Shown here: one piece after another, positions 12,108 to 62,380 of the stretch
How the letters are laid out: each line of letters begins with the position of its first letter
How positions within the stretch are numbered: position 1 is the first letter of the stretch
Source of the DNA: Escherichia coli
GTDB lineage: Bacteria > Pseudomonadota > Gammaproteobacteria > Enterobacterales > Enterobacteriaceae
NCBI RefSeq assembly: GCF_046105845.1
Contig: NZ_CP151004.1
Strand: one strand, 5' to 3'
Length of the DNA stretch: 64,000 nucleotides
Made by a program: the position numbers and the translations under genes
Notes under the pieces: model-generated
What the model was told of the DNA's origin: nothing
Seen by the model: the letters and a program-made list of their open reading frames with translations, nothing else
Database searches by the model: none

Positions 12108-12334
12108 CGACCAAAAACCTCTTTGCGTCACATTTTTACAACAATTATGGCAGAGAAGATTAATGCCATTGGAATGAAGAGAGTAACGAATGATTAAACT
12201 GGCTAAACCGAATGACGAAAAATTCTGGAAAACAGCACGCAATTTCGTCAGGTGATTATTTTCGTCCCTAAGGAAACCACATAGGATGCTCACGGGTGCC
12301 TGAGACTTTCTGTTTTCAGGCTAACCGGGAATCA

Positions 12335-12381
12335 GAAAGACGAAGGCCCCGACCGATATTTCTATCAACCGAGGCCAACGA

Positions 12382-12395
<14 letters not shown>
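12335..12395 (-). ncRNA. sokB: Approximate position of SokB antisense RNA (antitoxin of hokB), inferred by locus architecture only
   Basis: hok/sok loci encode Sok antisense to the mok translation-initiation region; boundaries not determinable by eye. Confidence 0.3.
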
Positions 12396-12589
<194 letters not shown>

Positions 12590-13003: not shown

Positions 13004-13068
13004 CTTCCGATGTAGGCCCGTATTCTTCGCCTGTACCACGGGTCGGTTTTAGTACAGGCGTTTTCTTT
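13004..13068 (+). ncRNA. rydC: RydC small regulatory RNA (Hfq-dependent)
   Basis: cttccgatgtaggcccgtattcttcgcctgtaccacgggtcggttttagtacaggcgttttctt matches remembered RydC sequence nearly base-for-base; located between ydcA and cybB as in K-12. Confidence 0.85.
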
Positions 13069-23416: not shown

Positions 23417-23460
23417 TTGTGTATCACATGCTAAAAATTAGAACGTCCAGCATCAGGACG

Positions 23461-24051
23461 TTACTGTTTCGGTCGCAGATTCTCATCAAATACCAGGCGT
23501 TTCCTGCCAGGTTCAACTTCCCGCAATGGCTCGACTTGATGTAACGTCTGCTTACAGCGTGTCACCAGCACCTGGTACTCATGCGTACCCTGCTTTTTCC
23601 ATGCCAACTCCTGCTCACTGAGTTCACGAATCGCTTTCGCCGGGCTGCCGACAATCAGGTAATTAGCTGGCATTTCTGCTTTGGCTTTCACAAATGCGGA
23701 TGCGCCAACAATGCTGTTCTCGCCAATCACCGCACCGTCTATCACTACCGCGTTCATTCCCACTAATGCATTGCGGCGGATAATGCAGCCGTGAAGGATA
23801 GCGCTATGACCAATATGTCCATCTTCTTCCACGACAGTATCCTGCTCGGGAAAACCGTGCATAACGCAATTATCCTGAATGTTCGCGCCATTTTTCACCA
23901 CGATACGATCAAAATCGCCACGCAGGCTGGCATTTGGCCCAACGTAAACGCCCTTGCCGAGAATAACATCGCCGATCAATACCGCTGTCGGATGAACAAA
24001 ACTCTCTTGTGGTACAACCGGAGTCAGACCGTCTATCTGATAAATTGGCAT
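23461..24051 (-). CDS. paaY: PaaY-like hexapeptide-repeat acyltransferase/thioesterase, intact but lacking the rest of the paa cluster
   Basis: 196-aa [37 protein letters not shown]... with left-handed beta-helix repeats; matches PaaY. Confidence 0.85.
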
Positions 24052-24158
24052 AACGCCTCCTGTTCAATATTCAAGCCGCCAAAACGTTGAAAATACAGGC
24101 TTCCCGGCGCAGGCAATTCACCGACCGAGGTTTCACCTTTTTCACTAACGAACGCTAA
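24033..24158 (-). pseudogene. paaX: 3'-terminal remnant of paaX (about 40 C-terminal codons), 5' part deleted
   Basis: Minus-strand frame ends 19 nt inside paaY as expected for paaX; N-terminal part of the 97-aa ORF is antisense to the feaR remnant, so only about 24033-24158 is likely paaX-derived; junction position approximate. Confidence 0.45.
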
Positions 24159-24392
24159 AGCAGCAGGCGCTACGCGCTGATAAAGTTTGCCGATAAAGGT
24201 TTGGTAGTCGCGCAATATATCCGTAACCGTCGTCTCGATTTTTGTGCAGATGCGATTCGCCATGCCGCAGATGATGAAAAACTGGCAGGCATTGGCTTTC
24301 ATTGGGGATTTTCCGACCAGAGTCATTTTTCAACGGTATTTAAGCAACGCTTTGGGATGACGCCAGGCGAGTATCGACGTAAATTCCGCTAA
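24159..24392 (+). pseudogene. feaR: 3'-terminal remnant of feaR (AraC-family C-terminal HTH region), 5' part deleted
   Basis: Plus frame ...YALIKFADKGLVVAQYIRNRRLDFCADAIRHAADDEKLAGIGFHWGFSDQSHFSTVFKQRFGMTPGEYRRKFR* is a typical AraC/XylS second HTH; in-frame stop at 24156-24158; convergent with ydbL as feaR is in K-12. Confidence 0.5.
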
Positions 24393-24428
24393 CTAATTCG
24401 CGTTGCATGTACAGCAACGCGAATTAGT
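24391..24428. terminator. Perfect 16-bp inverted repeat (aactaattcgcgttgc-atgtac-gcaacgcgaattagtt) between feaR remnant and ydbL
   Basis: Seen directly; lies at the convergent 3' ends; no strong T-run, so could be a bidirectional terminator or a protein-binding palindrome. Confidence 0.5.
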
Positions 24429-24563
24429 TAAAACAGATATTTGACTATGCATTTTTCAGGGCGAAAGGCAATTTGACAGGAATTTTTGAATATTCACCTT
24501 GTTTCCGGAAAATAGAATAATCGCCTTCTCCTGTAGCGTTATCCCGATATTGCGGTTTTGCTA

Positions 24564-24890
24564 TTAAAATTTTCGCACCCATTTACCGTTTATCCCTTGT
24601 ACATATTCCCCCGGTTTAGCCCGAGCTACGAGCTTTTGCCCGGCGAGTTTCGCGATATCATCTACCGAGACATTATTTTGCTTTGCCAGTTGTTGGTAAC
24701 TCGCTTTACGTTCGGCATTAATGTCGTTTACTAATTTCTCTGTTTCAGCATCTGTTTTCAGCGCAACCAGATAACCATAAAATGTTTCCCCTACCCGCCC
24801 CTGAGTTCTGGCTTCATCCAGAGTCAATGCCATTACATTGCTGCTTACCAGCCCAACAAGAAACGCACAAAGAAGTAATGTTTTCTTCAT
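24564..24890 (-). CDS. ydbL: DUF1318-family periplasmic protein YdbL
   Basis: Start trimmed to MKKTLLLCAFLVGLVSSNVMA (signal peptide), 108 aa. Confidence 0.85.
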   Translation of the reverse strand: MKKTLLLCAFLVGLVSSNVMALTLDEARTQGRVGETFYGYLVALKTDAETEKLVNDINAERKASYQQLAKQNNVSVDDIAKLAGQKLVARAKPGEYVQGINGKWVRKF

Positions 24891-29985: not shown

Positions 29986-32900
29986 ATGATTACTATTGAC
30001 GGTAATGGCGCGGTTGCTTCGGTGGCGTTTCGCACCAGTGAAGTTATCGCCATCTACCCTATTACCCCCAGTTCCACGATGGCAGAACAGGCTGATGCAT
30101 GGGCAGGAAACGGCTTAAAGAACGTTTGGGGAGACACACCACGCGTGGTTGAAATGCAGTCGGAAGCGGGTGCTATCGCTACCGTGCATGGCGCTTTGCA
30201 GACGGGTGCCCTTTCAACATCGTTTACGTCATCGCAGGGTTTGCTGCTGATGATCCCGACGCTGTACAAACTGGCAGGCGAACTGACGCCATTTGTCCTG
30301 CATGTAGCGGCACGTACCGTTGCCACACATGCACTCTCTATTTTTGGCGATCATTCCGACGTTATGGCGGTGCGCCAGACGGGTTGCGCGATGTTGTGTG
30401 CAGCAAACGTCCAGGAAGCGCAAGACTTTGCTCTTATTTCGCACATCGCGACGCTGAAGAGTCGCGTGCCATTTATTCATTTCTTTGATGGTTTCCGCAC
30501 GTCCCACGAGATCAATAAAATTGTCCCGCTGGCCGATGACACTATTCTTGAACTGATGCCGCAGGCCGAAATTGATGCTCATCGCGCCCGGGCACTCAAC
30601 CCGGAACATCCGGTGATCCGCGGTACGTCCGCCAATCCTGATACTTATTTCCAGTCTCGCGAAGCCACCAACCCATGGTACAACGCGGTCTATGACCATG
30701 TTGAGCAGGCGATGAATGATTTCGCTGCCGCGACAGGTCGTCAGTATCAGCCGTTTGAGTATTACGGGCATTCGCAAGCGGAACGGGTGATTATCCTGAT
30801 GGGCTCTGCCATTGGTACCTGTGAAGAAGTGGTTGATGAACTGCTAACCCGTGGCGAAAAAGTCGGCGTGCTGAAAGTTCGCCTGTACCGTCCCTTCTCC
30901 GCCAAACACTTGCTACAAGCTCTGCCGGGATCCGTACGCAGCGTGGCGGTACTGGACAGAACCAAAGAACCAGGTGCCCAGGCAGAACCGCTCTATCTGG
31001 ATGTGATGACCGCACTGGCAGAAGCCTTTAATAATGGCGAGCGCGAAACCCTGCCCCGTGTCATTGGTGGGCGCTATGGTCTTTCATCCAAAGAATTTGG
31101 CCCGGACTGTGTACTGGCGGTATTTGCCGAGCTCAACGCGGCTAAACCGAAAGCGCGCTTTACGGTTGGTATTTACGATGATGTGACCAATCTGTCACTG
31201 CCGTTGCCGGAAAACACCCTGCCAAACTCGGCGAAACTGGAAGCCTTGTTTTATGGCCTTGGCAGTGATGGCAGCGTTTCCGCGACCAAAAACAATATCA
31301 AGATTATCGGTAATTCCACGCCGTGGTACGCACAGGGCTATTTTGTTTACGACTCCAAAAAGGCGGGCGGCCTGACGGTTTCTCACCTTCGCGTGAGCGA
31401 GCAGCCGATTCGTTCCGCTTATCTCATTTCCCAGGCTGATTTTGTTGGCTGCCACCAGTTGCAGTTTATCGATAAATATCAGATGGTTGAACGTTTAAAA
31501 CCTGGCGGCATTTTCCTGCTCAACACGCCGTACAGCGTAGATGAAGTGTGGTCGCGCTTGCCGCAGGAAGTTCAGGCCGTGTTAAACCAGAAAAAAGCGC
31601 GCTTCTATGTGATTAACGCGGCGAAAATCGCCCGCGAATGTGGCCTGGCGGCCCGTATTAATACCGTCATGCAGATGGCTTTTTTCCATCTGACGCAAAT
31701 TCTGCCTGGCGATAGCGCCCTCGCAGAATTGCAGGGTGCGATTGCCAAAAGTTACAGTAGCAAAGGTCAGGATCTGGTGGAGCGCAACTGGCAGGCTCTG
31801 GCGCTGGCGCGTGAATCCGTAGAAGAAGTTCTGTTGCAGCCGGTTAATCCGCACAGCGCCAATCGACCGCCTGTGGTTTCCGATGCCGCTCCTGATTTCG
31901 TGAAAACCGTTACCGCGGCGATGCTCGCCGGGCTTGGTGATGCCCTCCCCGTTTCGGCGCTGCCGCCAGACGGCACCTGGCCGATGGGCACCACGCGCTG
32001 GGAAAAACGCAATATCGCCGAAGAGATCCCCATCTGGAAAGAGGAACTCTGTACCCAATGTAACCACTGCGTCGCCGCTTGCCCACACTCAGCTATTCGC
32101 GCAAAAGTGGTGCCGCCTGAAGCGATGGAAAACTCCCCTGCCAGCCTGCATTCGCTGGATGTGAAATCGCGTGATATGCGCGGGCAGAAATATGTCTTGC
32201 AGGTGGCTCCGGAAGATTGCACCGGTTGTAACCTGTGCGTCGAAGTTTGCCCGGCGAAAGACCGTCAGAATCCAGAGATTAAAGCCATCAATATGATGTC
32301 GCGGCTGGAACATGTCGAAGAAGAGAAAATCAATTACGATTTCTTCCTCAACCTGCCAGAAATCGACCGTAGCAAACTGGAACGTATTGATATTCGTACA
32401 TCGCAGCTGATTACACCGCTGTTTGAATATTCCGGTGCTTGCTCCGGTTGTGGCGAGACGCCGTATATTAAATTGCTGACTCAGCTCTATGGCGACCGGA
32501 TGTTGATCGCTAACGCCACCGGCTGTTCTTCAATTTATGGCGGTAACCTGCCCTCTACACCGTATACCACCGATACCAACGGTCGCGGGCCGGCATGGGC
32601 GAACTCTCTATTTGAAGATAATGCCGAATTTGGCCTTGGTTTCCGCCTGACGGTCGATCAACACCGTGTCCGCGTGCTGCGTCTGCTGGATCAATTTGCC
32701 GATAAAATCCCGGCGGAATTACTGACTGCGTTGAAATCAGACGCCACGCCAGAGGTTCGTCGAGAACAGGTCGCAGCTTTACGCCAGCAACTCAACGATG
32801 TTGCCGAAGCACATGAACTGCTACGTGACGCAGATGCACTGGTGGAAAAATCGATCTGGCTGATTGGTGGCGATGGCTGGGCTTACGATATCGGCTTTGG

Positions 32901-33510
32901 CGGTCTGGATCATGTATTGAGTTTGACCGAAAACGTCAACATTCTGGTGCTGGATACGCAATGCTATTCCAATACCGGTGGTCAGGCGTCAAAAGCCACG
33001 CCGCTTGGCGCGGTGACTAAGTTTGGCGAGCACGGCAAACGTAAAGCGCGTAAAGATCTTGGCGTCAGTATGATGATGTACGGTCATATTTATGTGGCGC
33101 AGATATCTCTCGGCGCGCAGCTCAACCAGACAGTAAAAGCGATTCAGGAAGCGGAAGCGTATCCGGGACCATCGCTGATCATCGCTTATAGCCCGTGTGA
33201 AGAGCATGGTTACGATCTGGCACTCAGTCACGACCAGATGCGCCAACTCACTGCCACCGGCTTCTGGCCGCTATATCGCTTCGATCCTCGTCGTGCCGAT
33301 GAAGGCAAACTGCCGCTGGCGCTGGATTCACGCCCGCCGTCAGAAGCACTGGAAGAAACGTTACTTCACGAGCAGCGTTTCCGTCGTCTGAATTCGCAGC
33401 AGCCAGAAGTGGCAGAACAGTTATGGAAAGATGCTGCAGCTGATTTGCAAAAACGCTATGACTTCCTGGCACAAATGGCCGGAAAAGCGGAAAAAAGCAA
33501 CACAGATTAA
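29986..33510 (+). CDS. ydbK: Pyruvate:flavodoxin/ferredoxin oxidoreductase (PFOR) YdbK
   Basis: 1174-aa ORF with two 4Fe-4S ferredoxin motifs (CTQCNHCVAACP, CTGCNLCVEVCP) and TPP-binding domain. Confidence 0.95.
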   Translation: MITIDGNGAVASVAFRTSEVIAIYPITPSSTMAEQADAWAGNGLKNVWGDTPRVVEMQSEAGAIATVHGALQTGALSTSFTSSQGLLLMIPTLYKLAGELTPFVLHVAARTVATHALSIFGDHSDVMAVRQTGCAMLCAANVQEAQDFALISHIATLKSRVPFIHFFDGFRTSHEINKIVPLADDTILELMPQAEIDAHRARALNPEHPVIRGTSANPDTYFQSREATNPWYNAVYDHVEQAMNDFAAATGRQYQPFEYYGHSQAERVIILMGSAIGTCEEVVDELLTRGEKVGVLKVRLYRPFSAKHLLQALPGSVRSVAVLDRTKEPGAQAEPLYLDVMTALAEAFNNGERETLPRVIGGRYGLSSKEFGPDCVLAVFAELNAAKPKARFTVGIYDDVTNLSLPLPENTLPNSAKLEALFYGLGSDGSVSATKNNIKIIGNSTPWYAQGYFVYDSKKAGGLTVSHLRVSEQPIRSAYLISQADFVGCHQLQFIDKYQMVERLKPGGIFLLNTPYSVDEVWSRLPQEVQAVLNQKKARFYVINAAKIARECGLAARINTVMQMAFFHLTQILPGDSALAELQGAIAKSYSSKGQDLVERNWQALALARESVEEVLLQPVNPHSANRPPVVSDAAPDFVKTVTAAMLAGLGDALPVSALPPDGTWPMGTTRWEKRNIAEEIPIWKEELCTQCNHCVAACPHSAIRAKVVPPEAMENSPASLHSLDVKSRDMRGQKYVLQVAPEDCTGCNLCVEVCPAKDRQNPEIKAINMMSRLEHVEEEKINYDFFLNLPEIDRSKLERIDIRTSQLITPLFEYSGACSGCGETPYIKLLTQLYGDRMLIANATGCSSIYGGNLPSTPYTTDTNGRGPAWANSLFEDNAEFGLGFRLTVDQHRVRVLRLLDQFADKIPAELLTALKSDATPEVRREQVAALRQQLNDVAEAHELLRDADALVEKSIWLIGGDGWAYDIGFGGLDHVLSLTENVNILVLDTQCYSNTGGQASKATPLGAVTKFGEHGKRKARKDLGVSMMMYGHIYVAQISLGAQLNQTVKAIQEAEAYPGPSLIIAYSPCEEHGYDLALSHDQMRQLTATGFWPLYRFDPRRADEGKLPLALDSRPPSEALEETLLHEQRFRRLNSQQPEVAEQLWKDAAADLQKRYDFLAQMAGKAEKSNTD

Positions 33511-33538
33511 ATGCACTGGATAAGGATTATCCAATTCT

Positions 33539-33648
33539 AAAAAAAAGCCCGGACGACTGTTCGGGCTTGTCTTTTTATATGTTGGAAAATCAGTGCCAAT
33601 GCAATGGCCCAACAGAAAATAAAATCTGTGACAATAAAGGCATATAAC
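33539..33648 (-). ncRNA. micC: MicC small RNA (Hfq-dependent repressor of ompC/ompD)
   Basis: Reverse complement GTTATATGCCTTTATTGTCACAGATTTTATTTTCTGTTGGGCCATTGCATTGGCACTGATTTTCCAACATATAAAAAGACAAGCCCGAACAGTCGTCCGGGCTTTTTTTT matches remembered MicC including terminator; divergent from ompN as in K-12. Confidence 0.9.
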
Positions 33649-33875
33649 CCGCGCAGAATAACGTATAGCAAATTAAAAGTATAATTTTTATTTTGTATGT
33701 ATTATCTTCGATACATTCACCAGACTTATTATCATTTCAGAGGAATTATTTGATTAAGGTTTTACTTAAGGCGTAACAAATGATATTTATCGGCTAACTG
33801 TACTTCTCCTTTAGGATGTTTTCACTCCCCGAAATGGGGATAAAAGGCAAATAAAATAACTAAAGGATTTATTCA

Positions 33876-34994
33876 ATGAAAAGCAAAGTACTGGCACTTT
33901 TAATTCCCGCCCTGCTCGCCGCAGGTGCTGCACATGCAGCCGAAGTTTATAATAAAGACGGCAACAAATTAGATCTGTATGGCAAAGTTGATGGCCTACA
34001 TTATTTTTCTGATAATACCAATAGTGATGGTGATCAAACTTATGTGCGTTTTGGTTTTAAGGGTGAAACGCAAATCACGGATCAACTGGTTGGGTATGGC
34101 CAGTGGGAATATAACGTGCAGGCTAATGGCTCTGAAGGTGATAAAGGTGATTCCTGGACTCGTCTTGCTTTTGCCGGTCTGAAATTTGGTGACCTGGGTT
34201 CATTCGACTATGGTCGTAATTATGGCGTAATGTACGACATCGAAGGCTGGACCGATATGCTACCGGAATTCGGTGGTGACTCTTATACCAAAGCCGATAA
34301 CTATATGACCGGTCGAGCCAATGGCGTAGCAACCTATCGTAATACTGATTTCTTCGGTCTAGTTGATGGTCTGAATTTTGCGTTACAGTACCAGGGCGCG
34401 AATGAAAACCAGGTCACCCATGAGCAAGAAGGTACCGCAAACGGTGGTGATCGAAACATTAAGAACGCCAATGGAGACGGTTTTGGCATCTCCACTACCT
34501 ACGACTTAGGTATGGGCATGAGTTTTGGTGCCGCCTATACCAGCTCCGATCGCACTAACCAGCAGGCTGAATTCTCTACCGCAAAAGGCGATAAGGCTGA
34601 CGCCTGGACTGCCGGGGCAAAATACGATGCTAACAATATCTACCTGGCGACCATGTATTCTGAAACGCGTAACATGACACCTTACGGTGATTCAACAAAT
34701 ACGATTGCCAACAAAACCCAGAACTTTGAAGTTACTGCGCAGTATCAGTTCGATTTTGGGCTGCGTCCGGCAGTCTCTTTCCTGATGTCTAAAGGCAAGG
34801 ATTTGGTCGGTACCGACGGTGATAAAGATCTGGTTAAATACGCCGATGTTGGCGCGACTTACTATTTCAACAAAAATATGTCCACCTACGTTGACTATAA
34901 AATCAACCTGTTGGATGAAGATGACAGCTTCTACGCTGCCAACGGCATCTCTACCGATGATATTGTCGCTTTAGGTCTGGTTTATCAGTTCTAA
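33876..34994 (+). CDS. ompN: Outer membrane porin OmpN (general-diffusion porin, OmpC/F family)
   Basis: 372-aa ORF with signal peptide and C-terminal LGLVYQF porin motif; at K-12 ompN position. Confidence 0.85.
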
Positions 34995-35053: not shown

Positions 35054-35569
<516 letters not shown>

Positions 35570-35576
35570 CACTAAC

Positions 35577-35601
35577 GCCCGCACATTGCTGCGGGCTTTT
35601 T
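35577..35601 (+). terminator. Rho-independent terminator after uspF (gcccgca-cattgc-tgcgggc + T5)
   Basis: Stem-loop followed by TTTTT. Confidence 0.7.
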
Positions 35602-35744
35602 GATTCATTTCGCAAATGTGCTGACATTTTCCCCTCTAATCCGTACCATACACGCCACAGTTTTTATATCAGATTTCTTATGCTGGGCGTTCCGGCATGA
35701 CGCATACTCTTCTGATGCCATATAACGAATTGAGTCGCTTTTAA

Positions 35745-36680
35745 ATGTCGCAAAATCAAGAAATTAGTAAGAAAGAACAATACAACCTGAACAAATTACA
35801 AAAACGTCTGCGTCGTAACGTGGGCGAAGCCATTGCTGACTTCAATATGATTGAAGAAGGCGATCGCATCATGGTTTGCCTCTCCGGGGGTAAAGACAGC
35901 TATACCATGCTGGAAATTCTGCGCAATTTGCAGCAAAGCGCGCCAATCAATTTTTCGCTGGTGGCTGTTAACCTCGATCAAAAGCAACCGGGCTTCCCGG
36001 AACACGTTCTGCCCGAGTATCTTGAAAAGCTGGGCGTTGAGTACAAGATTGTTGAAGAGAACACTTACGGTATCGTGAAAGAGAAGATTCCGGAGGGCAA
36101 AACCACTTGCTCACTGTGTTCTCGTCTTCGTCGCGGAATTCTTTACCGTACCGCAACGGAACTGGGAGCGACGAAGATCGCGCTGGGTCACCATCGTGAC
36201 GATATCCTGCAAACGTTGTTCTTAAATATGTTCTACGGTGGCAAGATGAAAGGTATGCCTCCGAAATTGATGAGCGATGATGGCAAACATATCGTGATTC
36301 GTCCGCTGGCCTACTGCCGCGAGAAAGATATTCAGCGCTTTGCCGATGCAAAAGCGTTCCCGATTATTCCGTGCAACCTGTGCGGTTCACAGCCTAACCT
36401 GCAACGTCAGGTGATTGCTGACATGTTGCGTGACTGGGATAAACGTTATCCGGGGCGTATCGAGACGATGTTCAGCGCGATGCAGAATGTGGTGCCGTCG
36501 CATCTGTGCGATACCAACCTGTTCGATTTCAAAGGCATTACCCACGGTTCTGAAGTGGTTAACGGGGGTGATCTGGCGTTTGATCGCGAAGAGATCCCTC
36601 TACAACCGGCGGGTTGGCAGCCTGAAGAAGATGAAAATCAGTTGGATGAGTTACGACTGAATGTGGTTGAAGTGAAATAA
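35745..36680 (+). CDS. ttcA: tRNA 2-thiocytidine(32) synthetase TtcA, full length
   Basis: 311-aa ORF with PP-loop SGGKDS and CxxC motifs (CSLC, CNLCGSQ). Confidence 0.95.
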
Positions 36681-36682
36681 CC

Positions 36683-36771
36683 CGGATAGCGCCCGATGCG
36701 CAAGCGTATCGGGCTACTCTTATGGAGGCCGGATAAGACGCGGCCAGCGTCGCATCCGGCAATCCCGAAGA
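36683..36771. repeat. REP/BIME element (pair of REP palindromes) between ttcA and dbpA
   Basis: gccggataagacgcggccagcgtcgcatccggcaat and flanking cccggatagcgcccgatgcgcaagcgtatcgggc are classic enterobacterial REP sequences. Confidence 0.7.
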
Positions 36772-36808
36772 AGATGTTGACTCTTGCACCCTGCGATTCA
36801 ACATTTCA

Positions 36809-38182
36809 TTATTTTAATAACCGCACCCGGCACGTTTTTCCTTTAATCTTCCCGCCCTGTAACTGTTTCCATGCTTTATGAGCAACAGCCTGACGCACCG
36901 CGACATAGACATGCGCCGGATGCACGGCGATTTTGCCAATATCTGCGCCATCAAGCCCGATATCTCCTGTCAGCGCACCTAATACATCACCCGGGCGCAT
37001 TTTGGCTTTTTTCCCGCCATCGATACATAACGTTGCCATTTCGGCTTCCAGCGGCACAATGGAACTATTAACTGGCGGCGTTTGCCAGTTAAGTTTTATC
37101 TGCAACATGTCAGAAATGATATTGGCCCGCTGTGCTTCTTCCGGGGCACAGAAACTGATCGCCAGACCGCTATTTCCTGCACGCGCTGTACGACCGATGC
37201 GATGTACATGAACTTCAGGATCCCACGCCAGCTCAAAGTTCACCACCAGCTCAAGCGATTTAATATCCAGACCTCGCGCAGCAACATCAGTCGCAACCAG
37301 TACACGGGCGCTACCGCTAGCAAAACGTACCAGGGTCTGATCGCGATCACGTTGCTCCAGATCGCCGTGTAACGACAATGCACTTTGCCCTACTTCATTC
37401 AGCGCGTCGCAGACAGCCTGGCAATCTTTTTTGGTATTGCAAAACACCACACAAGAGGATGGCTGATGCAAGCTTAATAACCGTTGCAACAGAGGAATTT
37501 TGCCTTTACTGGATGTCTCATAAAATTGTTGTTCAATGGGTGGCAGAGCATCTGTTGAGTCAATTTCAATCGCTAAAGGATCGCGTTGCACTCGTCCGCT
37601 GATTGCGGCGATGGCTTCCGGCCAGGTTGCCGAAAACAGAAGCGTCTGGCGAGATGCTGGCGCAAAACGGATGACATCATCAATGGCGTCGCTAAATCCC
37701 ATATCCAGCATGCGGTCGGCCTCATCCATCACCAGCGTATTCAACGCATCCAGTGATACCGTGCCTTTTTGCAGATGATCCAACAAACGGCCCGGCGTTG
37801 CCACGATAATATGCGGCGCATGTTGCAACGAATCACGCTGCATACCGAACGGTTGACCACCGCACAACGTCAAAATTTTGGTATTTGGCAGAAAACGCGC
37901 CAGCCGACGCAATTCACCTGCCACCTGATCCGCCAGTTCACGCGTAGGACACAGCACTAAAGCCTGGGTTTGAAATAGCGACGCATCAATTTGCTGTAAC
38001 AAGCCGAGGCCAAAAGCCGCCGTTTTGCCGCTGCCGGTTTTCGCCTGCACGCGAACATCTTTTCCGGCAAGGATCGCCGGAAGCGCGGCGGCCTGCACCG
38101 GCGTCATGGTTAAATAACCCAACTCATTAAGGTTCGTGAGTTGGGCGGGAGGCAAAACATTCAGGGTAGAAAAAGCGGTCAC
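36809..38182 (-). CDS. dbpA: ATP-dependent 23S rRNA-specific DEAD-box RNA helicase DbpA
   Basis: 457-aa ORF with Walker A (AKTGSGKT) and DEAD motif (VMDEADRM); GTG start. Confidence 0.95.
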   Translation of the reverse strand: MTAFSTLNVLPPAQLTNLNELGYLTMTPVQAAALPAILAGKDVRVQAKTGSGKTAAFGLGLLQQIDASLFQTQALVLCPTRELADQVAGELRRLARFLPNTKILTLCGGQPFGMQRDSLQHAPHIIVATPGRLLDHLQKGTVSLDALNTLVMDEADRMLDMGFSDAIDDVIRFAPASRQTLLFSATWPEAIAAISGRVQRDPLAIEIDSTDALPPIEQQFYETSSKGKIPLLQRLLSLHQPSSCVVFCNTKKDCQAVCDALNEVGQSALSLHGDLEQRDRDQTLVRFASGSARVLVATDVAARGLDIKSLELVVNFELAWDPEVHVHRIGRTARAGNSGLAISFCAPEEAQRANIISDMLQIKLNWQTPPVNSSIVPLEAEMATLCIDGGKKAKMRPGDVLGALTGDIGLDGADIGKIAVHPAHVYVAVRQAVAHKAWKQLQGGKIKGKTCRVRLLK

Positions 38183-38442: not shown

Positions 38443-38564
38443 AAAAAAAAGCCGACTCATCAAAGTCGGCGTCGTACGAATCAATTGTGCTATGCAGTAA
38501 TTCAAAAAAGGAAGTAAGACAATATGGAGCGCAACGCCCATCGCTTGACGTTGCATTCACCTGC
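38443..38564 (-). ncRNA. fnrS: FnrS small RNA (FNR-activated, Hfq-dependent)
   Basis: Reverse complement begins GCAGGTGAATGCAACGTCAAGCGATGGGCGTTGCGCTCCATATTGTCTTACTTCC and ends in GC hairpin + T8, matching remembered FnrS; between zntB and dbpA. Confidence 0.9.
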
Positions 38565-45430: not shown

Positions 45431-45524
45431 ACCGGTCACCAGGACCCCAGGCCGGATTTAAGACGAGGATGCACTGCTGTGTGTACTGTAGAGTCTGGCG
45501 GATGTCGACAGACTCTATTTTTTT
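45431..45524 (+). ncRNA. mcaS: McaS (IsrA) small RNA
   Basis: ...ggccggatttaagacgaggatgcactgctgtgtgtactgtagagtctggcggatgtcgacagactctattttttt matches remembered McaS 3' two-thirds and terminator; convergent with abgR as in K-12. Confidence 0.8.
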
Positions 45525-45532
45525 ATGCAGTT

Positions 45533-62348: not shown

Positions 62349-62380
62349 TATGCCTGATGGTGTTGCACCATCAGGCATAT
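62349..62380. terminator. Bidirectional hairpin between convergent tpx and tyrR (atgcctgatggtg-N4-caccatcaggcat)
   Basis: 13-bp perfect inverted repeat. Confidence 0.65.

Follow-up and report, generated by a model that had tools for sequence, protein, structure and literature searches.

An apparently prophage-free Rac attachment site at the 5′ end of ttcA in Escherichia coli

The ttcA gene marks the position of the Rac prophage in Escherichia coli K-12. In the 64,000-nucleotide stretch of E. coli DNA analysed here (the window: NCBI RefSeq assembly GCF_046105845.1, contig NZ_CP151004.1), ttcA is complete and lies between uspF and dbpA. Two questions are raised by this arrangement: is the attachment site of the prophage empty, and at which end of ttcA should one look for it? 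The original prediction answered yes to the first question and chose the 3′ end of the gene. Our answer is that the window almost certainly shows, in its prophage-free (attB) state, the chromosomal site at which Rac and Rac-like lambdoid phages insert, and that this site is located in the first ~50 bp of ttcA. The relevant features are as follows:

29986-33510, nifJ (ydbK), left of MicC in the gene order
33531-33651, minus strand, MicC RNA, between nifJ and the porin gene (Rfam match above the gathering score)
33876-34994, ompN-type porin gene of 372 amino acids, adjoining uspF
35135-35569, plus strand, uspF, host gene to the left of attB (144/144 positions of the NCBIfam UspF equivalog, 303 bits)
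35577-35596, plus strand, terminator-like hairpin and T-run after uspF (consensus scan, pattern match only)
35570-35744, plus strand, uspF-ttcA intergenic region of 175 bp, which is the native DNA upstream of ttcA and forms the left, host-side arm of attB
35745-36680, plus strand, ttcA, tRNA 2-thiocytidine(32) synthetase, an uninterrupted open reading frame of 311 codons
35745-35794, plus strand, extended attB, from the ttcA start codon through codon 17, the segment imperfectly duplicated at the Rac ends
35769-35794, plus strand, perfect 26-bp attB core, AAGAAAGAACAATACAACCTGAACAA (three-way alignment)
36809-38182, minus strand, dbpA, convergent with ttcA (NCBIfam DbpA equivalog, 766 bits)
38447-38564, minus strand, FnrS RNA, between dbpA and zntB (Rfam match above the gathering score)
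45431-45526, plus strand, McaS RNA (Rfam match above the gathering score)
12294-12445, plus strand, sok antitoxin RNA (Rfam match above the gathering score)
13004-13067, plus strand, RydC RNA (Rfam match above the gathering score)

The gene to the left of the site is also annotated as uspF in near-identical genomes, and the terminator-like hairpin that follows it has a 7-bp stem with six GC pairs ahead of TTTTT. Past dbpA, the gene order is FnrS (minus strand), zntB (minus strand) and dgcM. The five Rfam RNAs are all expected in this chromosomal region, and neither tRNA genes nor a compositional island were found in the window. The porin gene at 33876-34994 is annotated as ‘porin OmpC’ in the nearest relative, and the syntenic K-12 gene is OmpN; the annotation is thus inconsistent, and the gene is a divergent ompN allele. 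A promoter scan of the native region upstream of ttcA yielded a single sigma-70-like match (35621-35649), when 1.6 matches are expected by chance. Because such a match is no better than chance, we do not claim a ttcA promoter.

The place of Rac is upstream of ttcA, between the start of this gene and uspF. In the annotation of K-12 (O16:H48), the recE-recT-ralR-rcbA-xisR-intR genes are co-oriented with ttcA, and intR ends 51 bp before the ttcA ATG. The far end of the prophage (…stfR-tfaR-pinR-ydfK-ynaM) adjoins uspF and is accompanied by a 17-codon 5′ fragment of ttcA. Integration of Rac at the 5′, N-terminal end of ttcA has been described by Liu et al. 2015 (PMC4632033), and 5′-end integration is also stated in PMC6379469. 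According to the original prediction, the K-12 prophage occupies the 3′ end of ttcA, a view contradicted by the annotation, by the alignment described below and by both papers.

For definition of attB, the window was aligned in register with both Rac junctions of K-12. In this three-way alignment, the sequence of the window coincides with that of the uspF-side junction over at least 35705-35794, and with that of the intR-ttcA junction starting at 35769. The K-12 junctions themselves, attL and attR, agree with each other at the ATG and at positions 35752-35759, 35761-35766 and 35769-35794. The 175-bp intergenic DNA of the window is the same as the uspF-side flank of Rac in K-12, with identity that runs on to 35794; in lysogens, intR-proximal phage DNA takes its place upstream of ttcA. 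For strand exchange, the 26-bp block is the sole candidate region, and the alignment suggests that exchange would occur inside it. Inspection of the core by eye revealed only a direct GAACAA repeat; dyad symmetry, which is typical of core-type integrase binding sites, was not seen, and no claim is made on this point.

The core AAGAAAGAACAATACAACCTGAACAA occurs once in the 64-kb window, with 0 copies expected by chance. A second copy, as might betray a hidden or degraded element, was not found in the window even when up to three mismatches were allowed. Counts in other loci follow the state of the site: one copy where it is empty, two in a Rac-bearing locus. A further definition of the core is provided by phage Rac-SA53 (KU052037.1), whose record carries a 26-bp misc_recomb feature at each end, labelled attB and attP; the uspF-side feature corresponds to window positions 35769-35794. 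The deposited sequence is that of an inducible Rac-like prophage, 52 kb long and with host flanks still attached, whereas the window contains the bacterial partner site only. The features labelled ‘attB’ and ‘attP’ in KU052037 are in reality the cores of the two prophage-host junctions.

A search of a phage collection with the 81-bp att region retrieved four records only. At least three of them (Rac-SA53, SPF_0923 and vB_EcoS-683R6) resemble prophages cut from lysogens; only PHB10 looks like a free attP, with 86% identity over 35752-35794. With four records, mostly prophage cuts, the sample is too small for an attP consensus. Records ON032529.1 (31952-32011) and KU052037.1 (51961-52020) are 100% identical to window positions 35735-35794, including the 10 bp before the ATG and the host-type codons. 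The presence of host bases indicates that they are prophages cut from lysogens with bacterial flank, and not packaged attP.

Is there any phage DNA at the site? When the whole 23.3-kb Rac prophage of K-12 was compared with the window by BLASTN, together with short flanks, only two segments matched, 35542-35794 and 35752-35801. The first is the uspF-ttcC′ junction of K-12 (where ttcC′ denotes the stub of ttcA beside uspF); the second belongs to the intR-ttcA junction, which matches from 35752 on. Thirteen Rac proteins (IntR, XisR, RecE, RecT, RacR, KilR, SieB, TrkG, StfR, TfaR, PinR, YdaU and YdaV) gave no TBLASTN match in the 64 kb at E ≤ 1e-3. No integrase, prophage DNA or second core was found in the 175 bp that separate uspF from ttcA, and in the closest annotated genome the surrounding 20 kb on either side contain chromosomal genes only. 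A related phage has been reported at potB in CFT073 (PMC4632033), and the absence of Rac DNA described here holds for the 64-kb window. In contrast, K-12 has 23 kb of prophage between its att copies.

The product of ttcA tells a concordant story. The reading frame has no internal stops and ends in TAA, and the protein scores 513.6 bits against the NCBIfam TtcA equivalog NF007972 (cutoff 272) over residues 3-290. The PP-loop motif SGGKDS is found at residues 47-52, CSLC at 122-125 and CNLC at 210-213, with Cys122, Cys125 and Cys213 kept; we take these CxxC and C cysteines to be the ligands of the Fe-S cluster. The N-terminus reads MSQNQEIS, the ancestral (TtcA′) type. K-12 TtcA starts with MQENQQITKKEQYN, of the MQENQQIT type, and differs from the window protein at residues 2, 3, 6 and 8, which are att-encoded, and at residue 290 only. 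The MQENQQIT start is found in K-12, in the Rac-like lysogen 07_3986 (with an intact intR) and in an O18:H1 genome that carries a prophage remnant. The K-12 ttcC′ stub beside uspF is of the MSQNQEIS type, with 17 residues and then a stop, while TtcA of the nearest empty-site genome begins with MSQNQEFS. The change of four residues in lysogens was published by Liu et al. 2015 (PMC4632033), where prophage-free strains form the ‘ancestral TtcA′’ group and the empty-site form is termed ancient TtcA.

Altogether, the 175-bp uspF-ttcA junction, the single core copy and the ancestral N-terminus of TtcA indicate that the site is empty, and on this point the original prediction stands. None of the results speaks against this structural interpretation. 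The closest known counterpart is the TtcA′ allele of K-12 delta-rac (Liu et al. 2015, PMC4632033), with the same gene, 5′ position, core, uspF and ttcA flanks and MSQNQEIS start. No structural difference separates the two; the window comes from a natural strain and not from a cured K-12. The feature is the already published TtcA′/attB state and contains nothing new.

The frequency of this state was examined among complete E. coli genomes. A 2.3-kb query spanning uspF-ttcA-dbpA matched 5413 of them and was unbroken in 2487. In the remainder, K-12 derivatives included, the ttcA/dbpA match starts at query position 753, which is window position 35752, 8 nt into ttcA. A 501-bp query across the junction between uspF and the 5′ end of ttcA was contiguous in 2484/5410 complete genomes (46%). 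In genomes with a break here, the match on the left stops at query position 295 (35794) and the one on the right starts at 253 (35752), which are the limits of the duplicated att segment. More than half of the complete genomes thus have a ttcA site that is occupied or carries remnants.

One such remnant is found in O18:H1 strain CFSAN067215 (NZ_CP028320.1, 1669-3993), where only ~2.3 kb are left between uspF and ttcA. Within this remnant are a metal ABC permease gene disrupted by a frameshift, a fragment of DUF1627 and the 3′ fragment of the integrase gene, and TtcA is of the MQENQQIT type. It is a degraded (‘grounded’) Rac-like prophage for which excision is no longer possible.

How might such a site be gained and lost? 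The cited papers, together with what is known of tyrosine integrases, suggest that the phage tyrosine integrase IntR would recombine attP with the 26-bp core, and that XisR would assist IntR in excision. The intR-side arm of the phage would supply a look-alike start for ttcA, in which upstream sequence of the phage is followed by an ATG and the initial eight codons. Because the phage arm would bring this surrogate start, ttcA would stay intact and functional in lysogens, with the changes S2Q, Q3E, E6Q and S8T and with upstream DNA of phage origin. What is displaced, the native 5′ fragment, would remain as the ttcC′ stub next to uspF. Upon excision, a crossover in the core would restore exactly the sequence of the window. 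The window would therefore represent a site where integration either never happened or was precisely reversed.

The second of these possibilities, that an ancestral Rac-type lysogen lost its prophage by precise IntR/XisR excision, is the alternative that survives best, and we consider it unlikely though far from negligible. Rac is proficient for excision in K-12 and regenerates the exact ancestral sequence (PMC4632033), and the large share of genomes (more than half) in which the site is filled or bears remnants implies frequent gain and loss. However, excision is scarless, so that the sequence is the same in a lineage that was never lysogenised and in one that was cured; the window harbors no remnant, unlike O18:H1 CFSAN067215, and a site that was never occupied is the simpler reading.

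Another possibility is that the site resembles attB but is unusable because the core or its flanks are mutated. Nothing specific speaks for this view, beyond the fact that the lineage is somewhat divergent (at most 98.2% identity to any complete genome over 25 kb). We find it very hard to credit, as the core shows no difference from either K-12 junction or from the annotated att of Rac-SA53 (100% identity in each case), and the surrounding 501 bp are matched at 100% by the E. coli genome of strain 104. The literature and knowledge of the integrase family suggest instead that the window copy of attB would be able to receive a phage.

The other side of ttcA deserves separate description. The gap between ttcA and dbpA measures 128 bp (36681-36808), and its repeats and hairpins are the following:

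36691-36714, plus strand, REP1 hairpin, GCCCGATGCGC / GCGTATCGGGC (inverted repeat of 11 nt, 91% complementary)
36726-36760, minus strand, REP2, a canonical REP inverted relative to REP1 (exact match to the REP consensus)
36774-36804, no strand assigned, a third, non-REP hairpin that immediately follows the stop codon of dbpA (10-nt inverted repeat, 90% complementary, present in the MFE and centroid folds)

REP2 matches GCCGGATGCGRCG-N(3-12)-CGYCTTATCCGGCCT exactly on the minus strand, with 0 matches expected by chance, and forms a hairpin in both the inverted-repeat and the folding analyses. REP1 is a shorter, variant hairpin, and its stem is present in the MFE and centroid folds. The K-12 copies of both are identical to those of the window. 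The interval as a whole folds with -60.1 kcal/mol (z = -5.98 versus shuffles); folding that is far better than that of shuffled sequences supports the view that the hairpins are real. REP1 and REP2, inverted hairpins between convergent genes and with REP2 in exact agreement with the consensus of E. coli REP/BIME repeats, constitute a BIME-like pair of alternating orientation. The third hairpin may be the 3′ hairpin of dbpA. A scan of the 64 kb with a loose pattern revealed only one other REP-like hit, a perfect palindrome, GCCTGATGGTG…CACCATCAGGC, at 62352-62376.

The original prediction was right in that a complete ttcA of 311 codons is followed by a REP and then by dbpA; its figure of 89 bp for the REP/BIME was not, as the REP pair spans ~72 bp of the 128-bp gap. 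It had also read the adjacency of ttcA, REP and dbpA as a sign that the site is empty. Such adjacency is irrelevant: in K-12, where Rac is present, ttcA is followed by the same 128-bp interval and then by dbpA, with five substitutions with respect to the window. Three of the five substitutions lie in the third hairpin. A 601-bp query for the junction formed by the ttcA 3′ end, the REP and dbpA was contiguous in 5388/5402 complete E. coli genomes (99.7%), K-12 included. Because this junction is common to lysogens and to empty sites, it carries no information on occupancy. As for the proposed comparison of the ttcA 3′ end with the att cores of K-12, the BLAST search with Rac and its flanks produced no match at the 3′ end nor in the REP interval. 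A duplicated 3′ fragment of ttcA, suggested as evidence of occupancy, would be blind to it, since the fragment that lysogens duplicate is the 5′ one. The REP pair is, in short, an ordinary conserved intergenic repeat and has no part in the attachment site.

An attachment site at the 3′ end of ttcA, with the REP and dbpA next to it as the mark of emptiness, is thus virtually untenable: although many integrases follow the general rule of targeting gene 3′ ends, and although the REP and dbpA do come directly after ttcA in the window, the same interval accompanies an occupied site in K-12 and persists in nearly every genome, Rac DNA finds no match there, intR ends upstream of the ttcA ATG, the junctions of lysogens are found at the 5′ end (35752 and 35794), and both published accounts agree with the latter location.

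The choice of the wrong end was probably inspired by prophages of the e14 type. At icd, e14 resembles Rac in that a surrogate copy of the displaced segment leaves the host gene intact with a few changed residues (PMC6379469). However, e14 and most such phages replace the 3′ end of a gene, whereas in the case of Rac it is the 5′ end that is exchanged, start codon and upstream region included.

Additional observations concern the lineage. No complete E. coli genome reaches 99% identity over the 25 kb of window positions 15001-40000; the best match, strain MEW from an ivory gull, stands at 98.2%, and soil isolates come next. The 501 bp at attB, in contrast, have a 100% match in strain 104. Judging by these identities, the lineage of the window appears to be poorly sampled or mosaic. 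Elsewhere in the window, 1.3 kb (23447-24784) stand in place of a 7.8-kb stretch that includes a 7080-bp autotransporter gene in the closest annotated relative. The 1.3-kb segment contains an open reading frame of 196 amino acids with hexapeptide repeats (23461-24051, minus strand; Pfam Hexapep), presumably PaaY-like on account of its size, and another (24201-24392, plus strand) that on visual inspection resembles the C-terminal portion of a regulator of the AraC type and that we take to be FeaR-like. The segment looks like the outcome of a deletion of the tynA/paa block that left the genes at the ends.

A more speculative view is that the window comes from a poorly sampled lineage that has long been free of ttcA-targeting phages, which we regard as quite improbable. 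If it were true, the native ttcA upstream region and the ancestral N-terminus would provide a natural comparator for the way in which Rac may rewire ttcA expression, by exchange of the promoter and 5′ region, besides changing four residues. This idea is a slight extension of published work, and nothing in the sequence requires it.

Beyond correct annotation, the significance of the locus is small: an empty site is found in ~46% of complete E. coli genomes, and its sequence, its core and its effect on the protein have been published. As a natural recipient, the strain could be of use for work with Rac-like phages or with integration vectors based on attP. For the species at large, occupancy by Rac should be scored at the junction between uspF and the 5′ end of ttcA and from the N-terminus of TtcA (MSQNQEIS versus MQENQQIT), and not on the invariant ttcA-REP-dbpA side.
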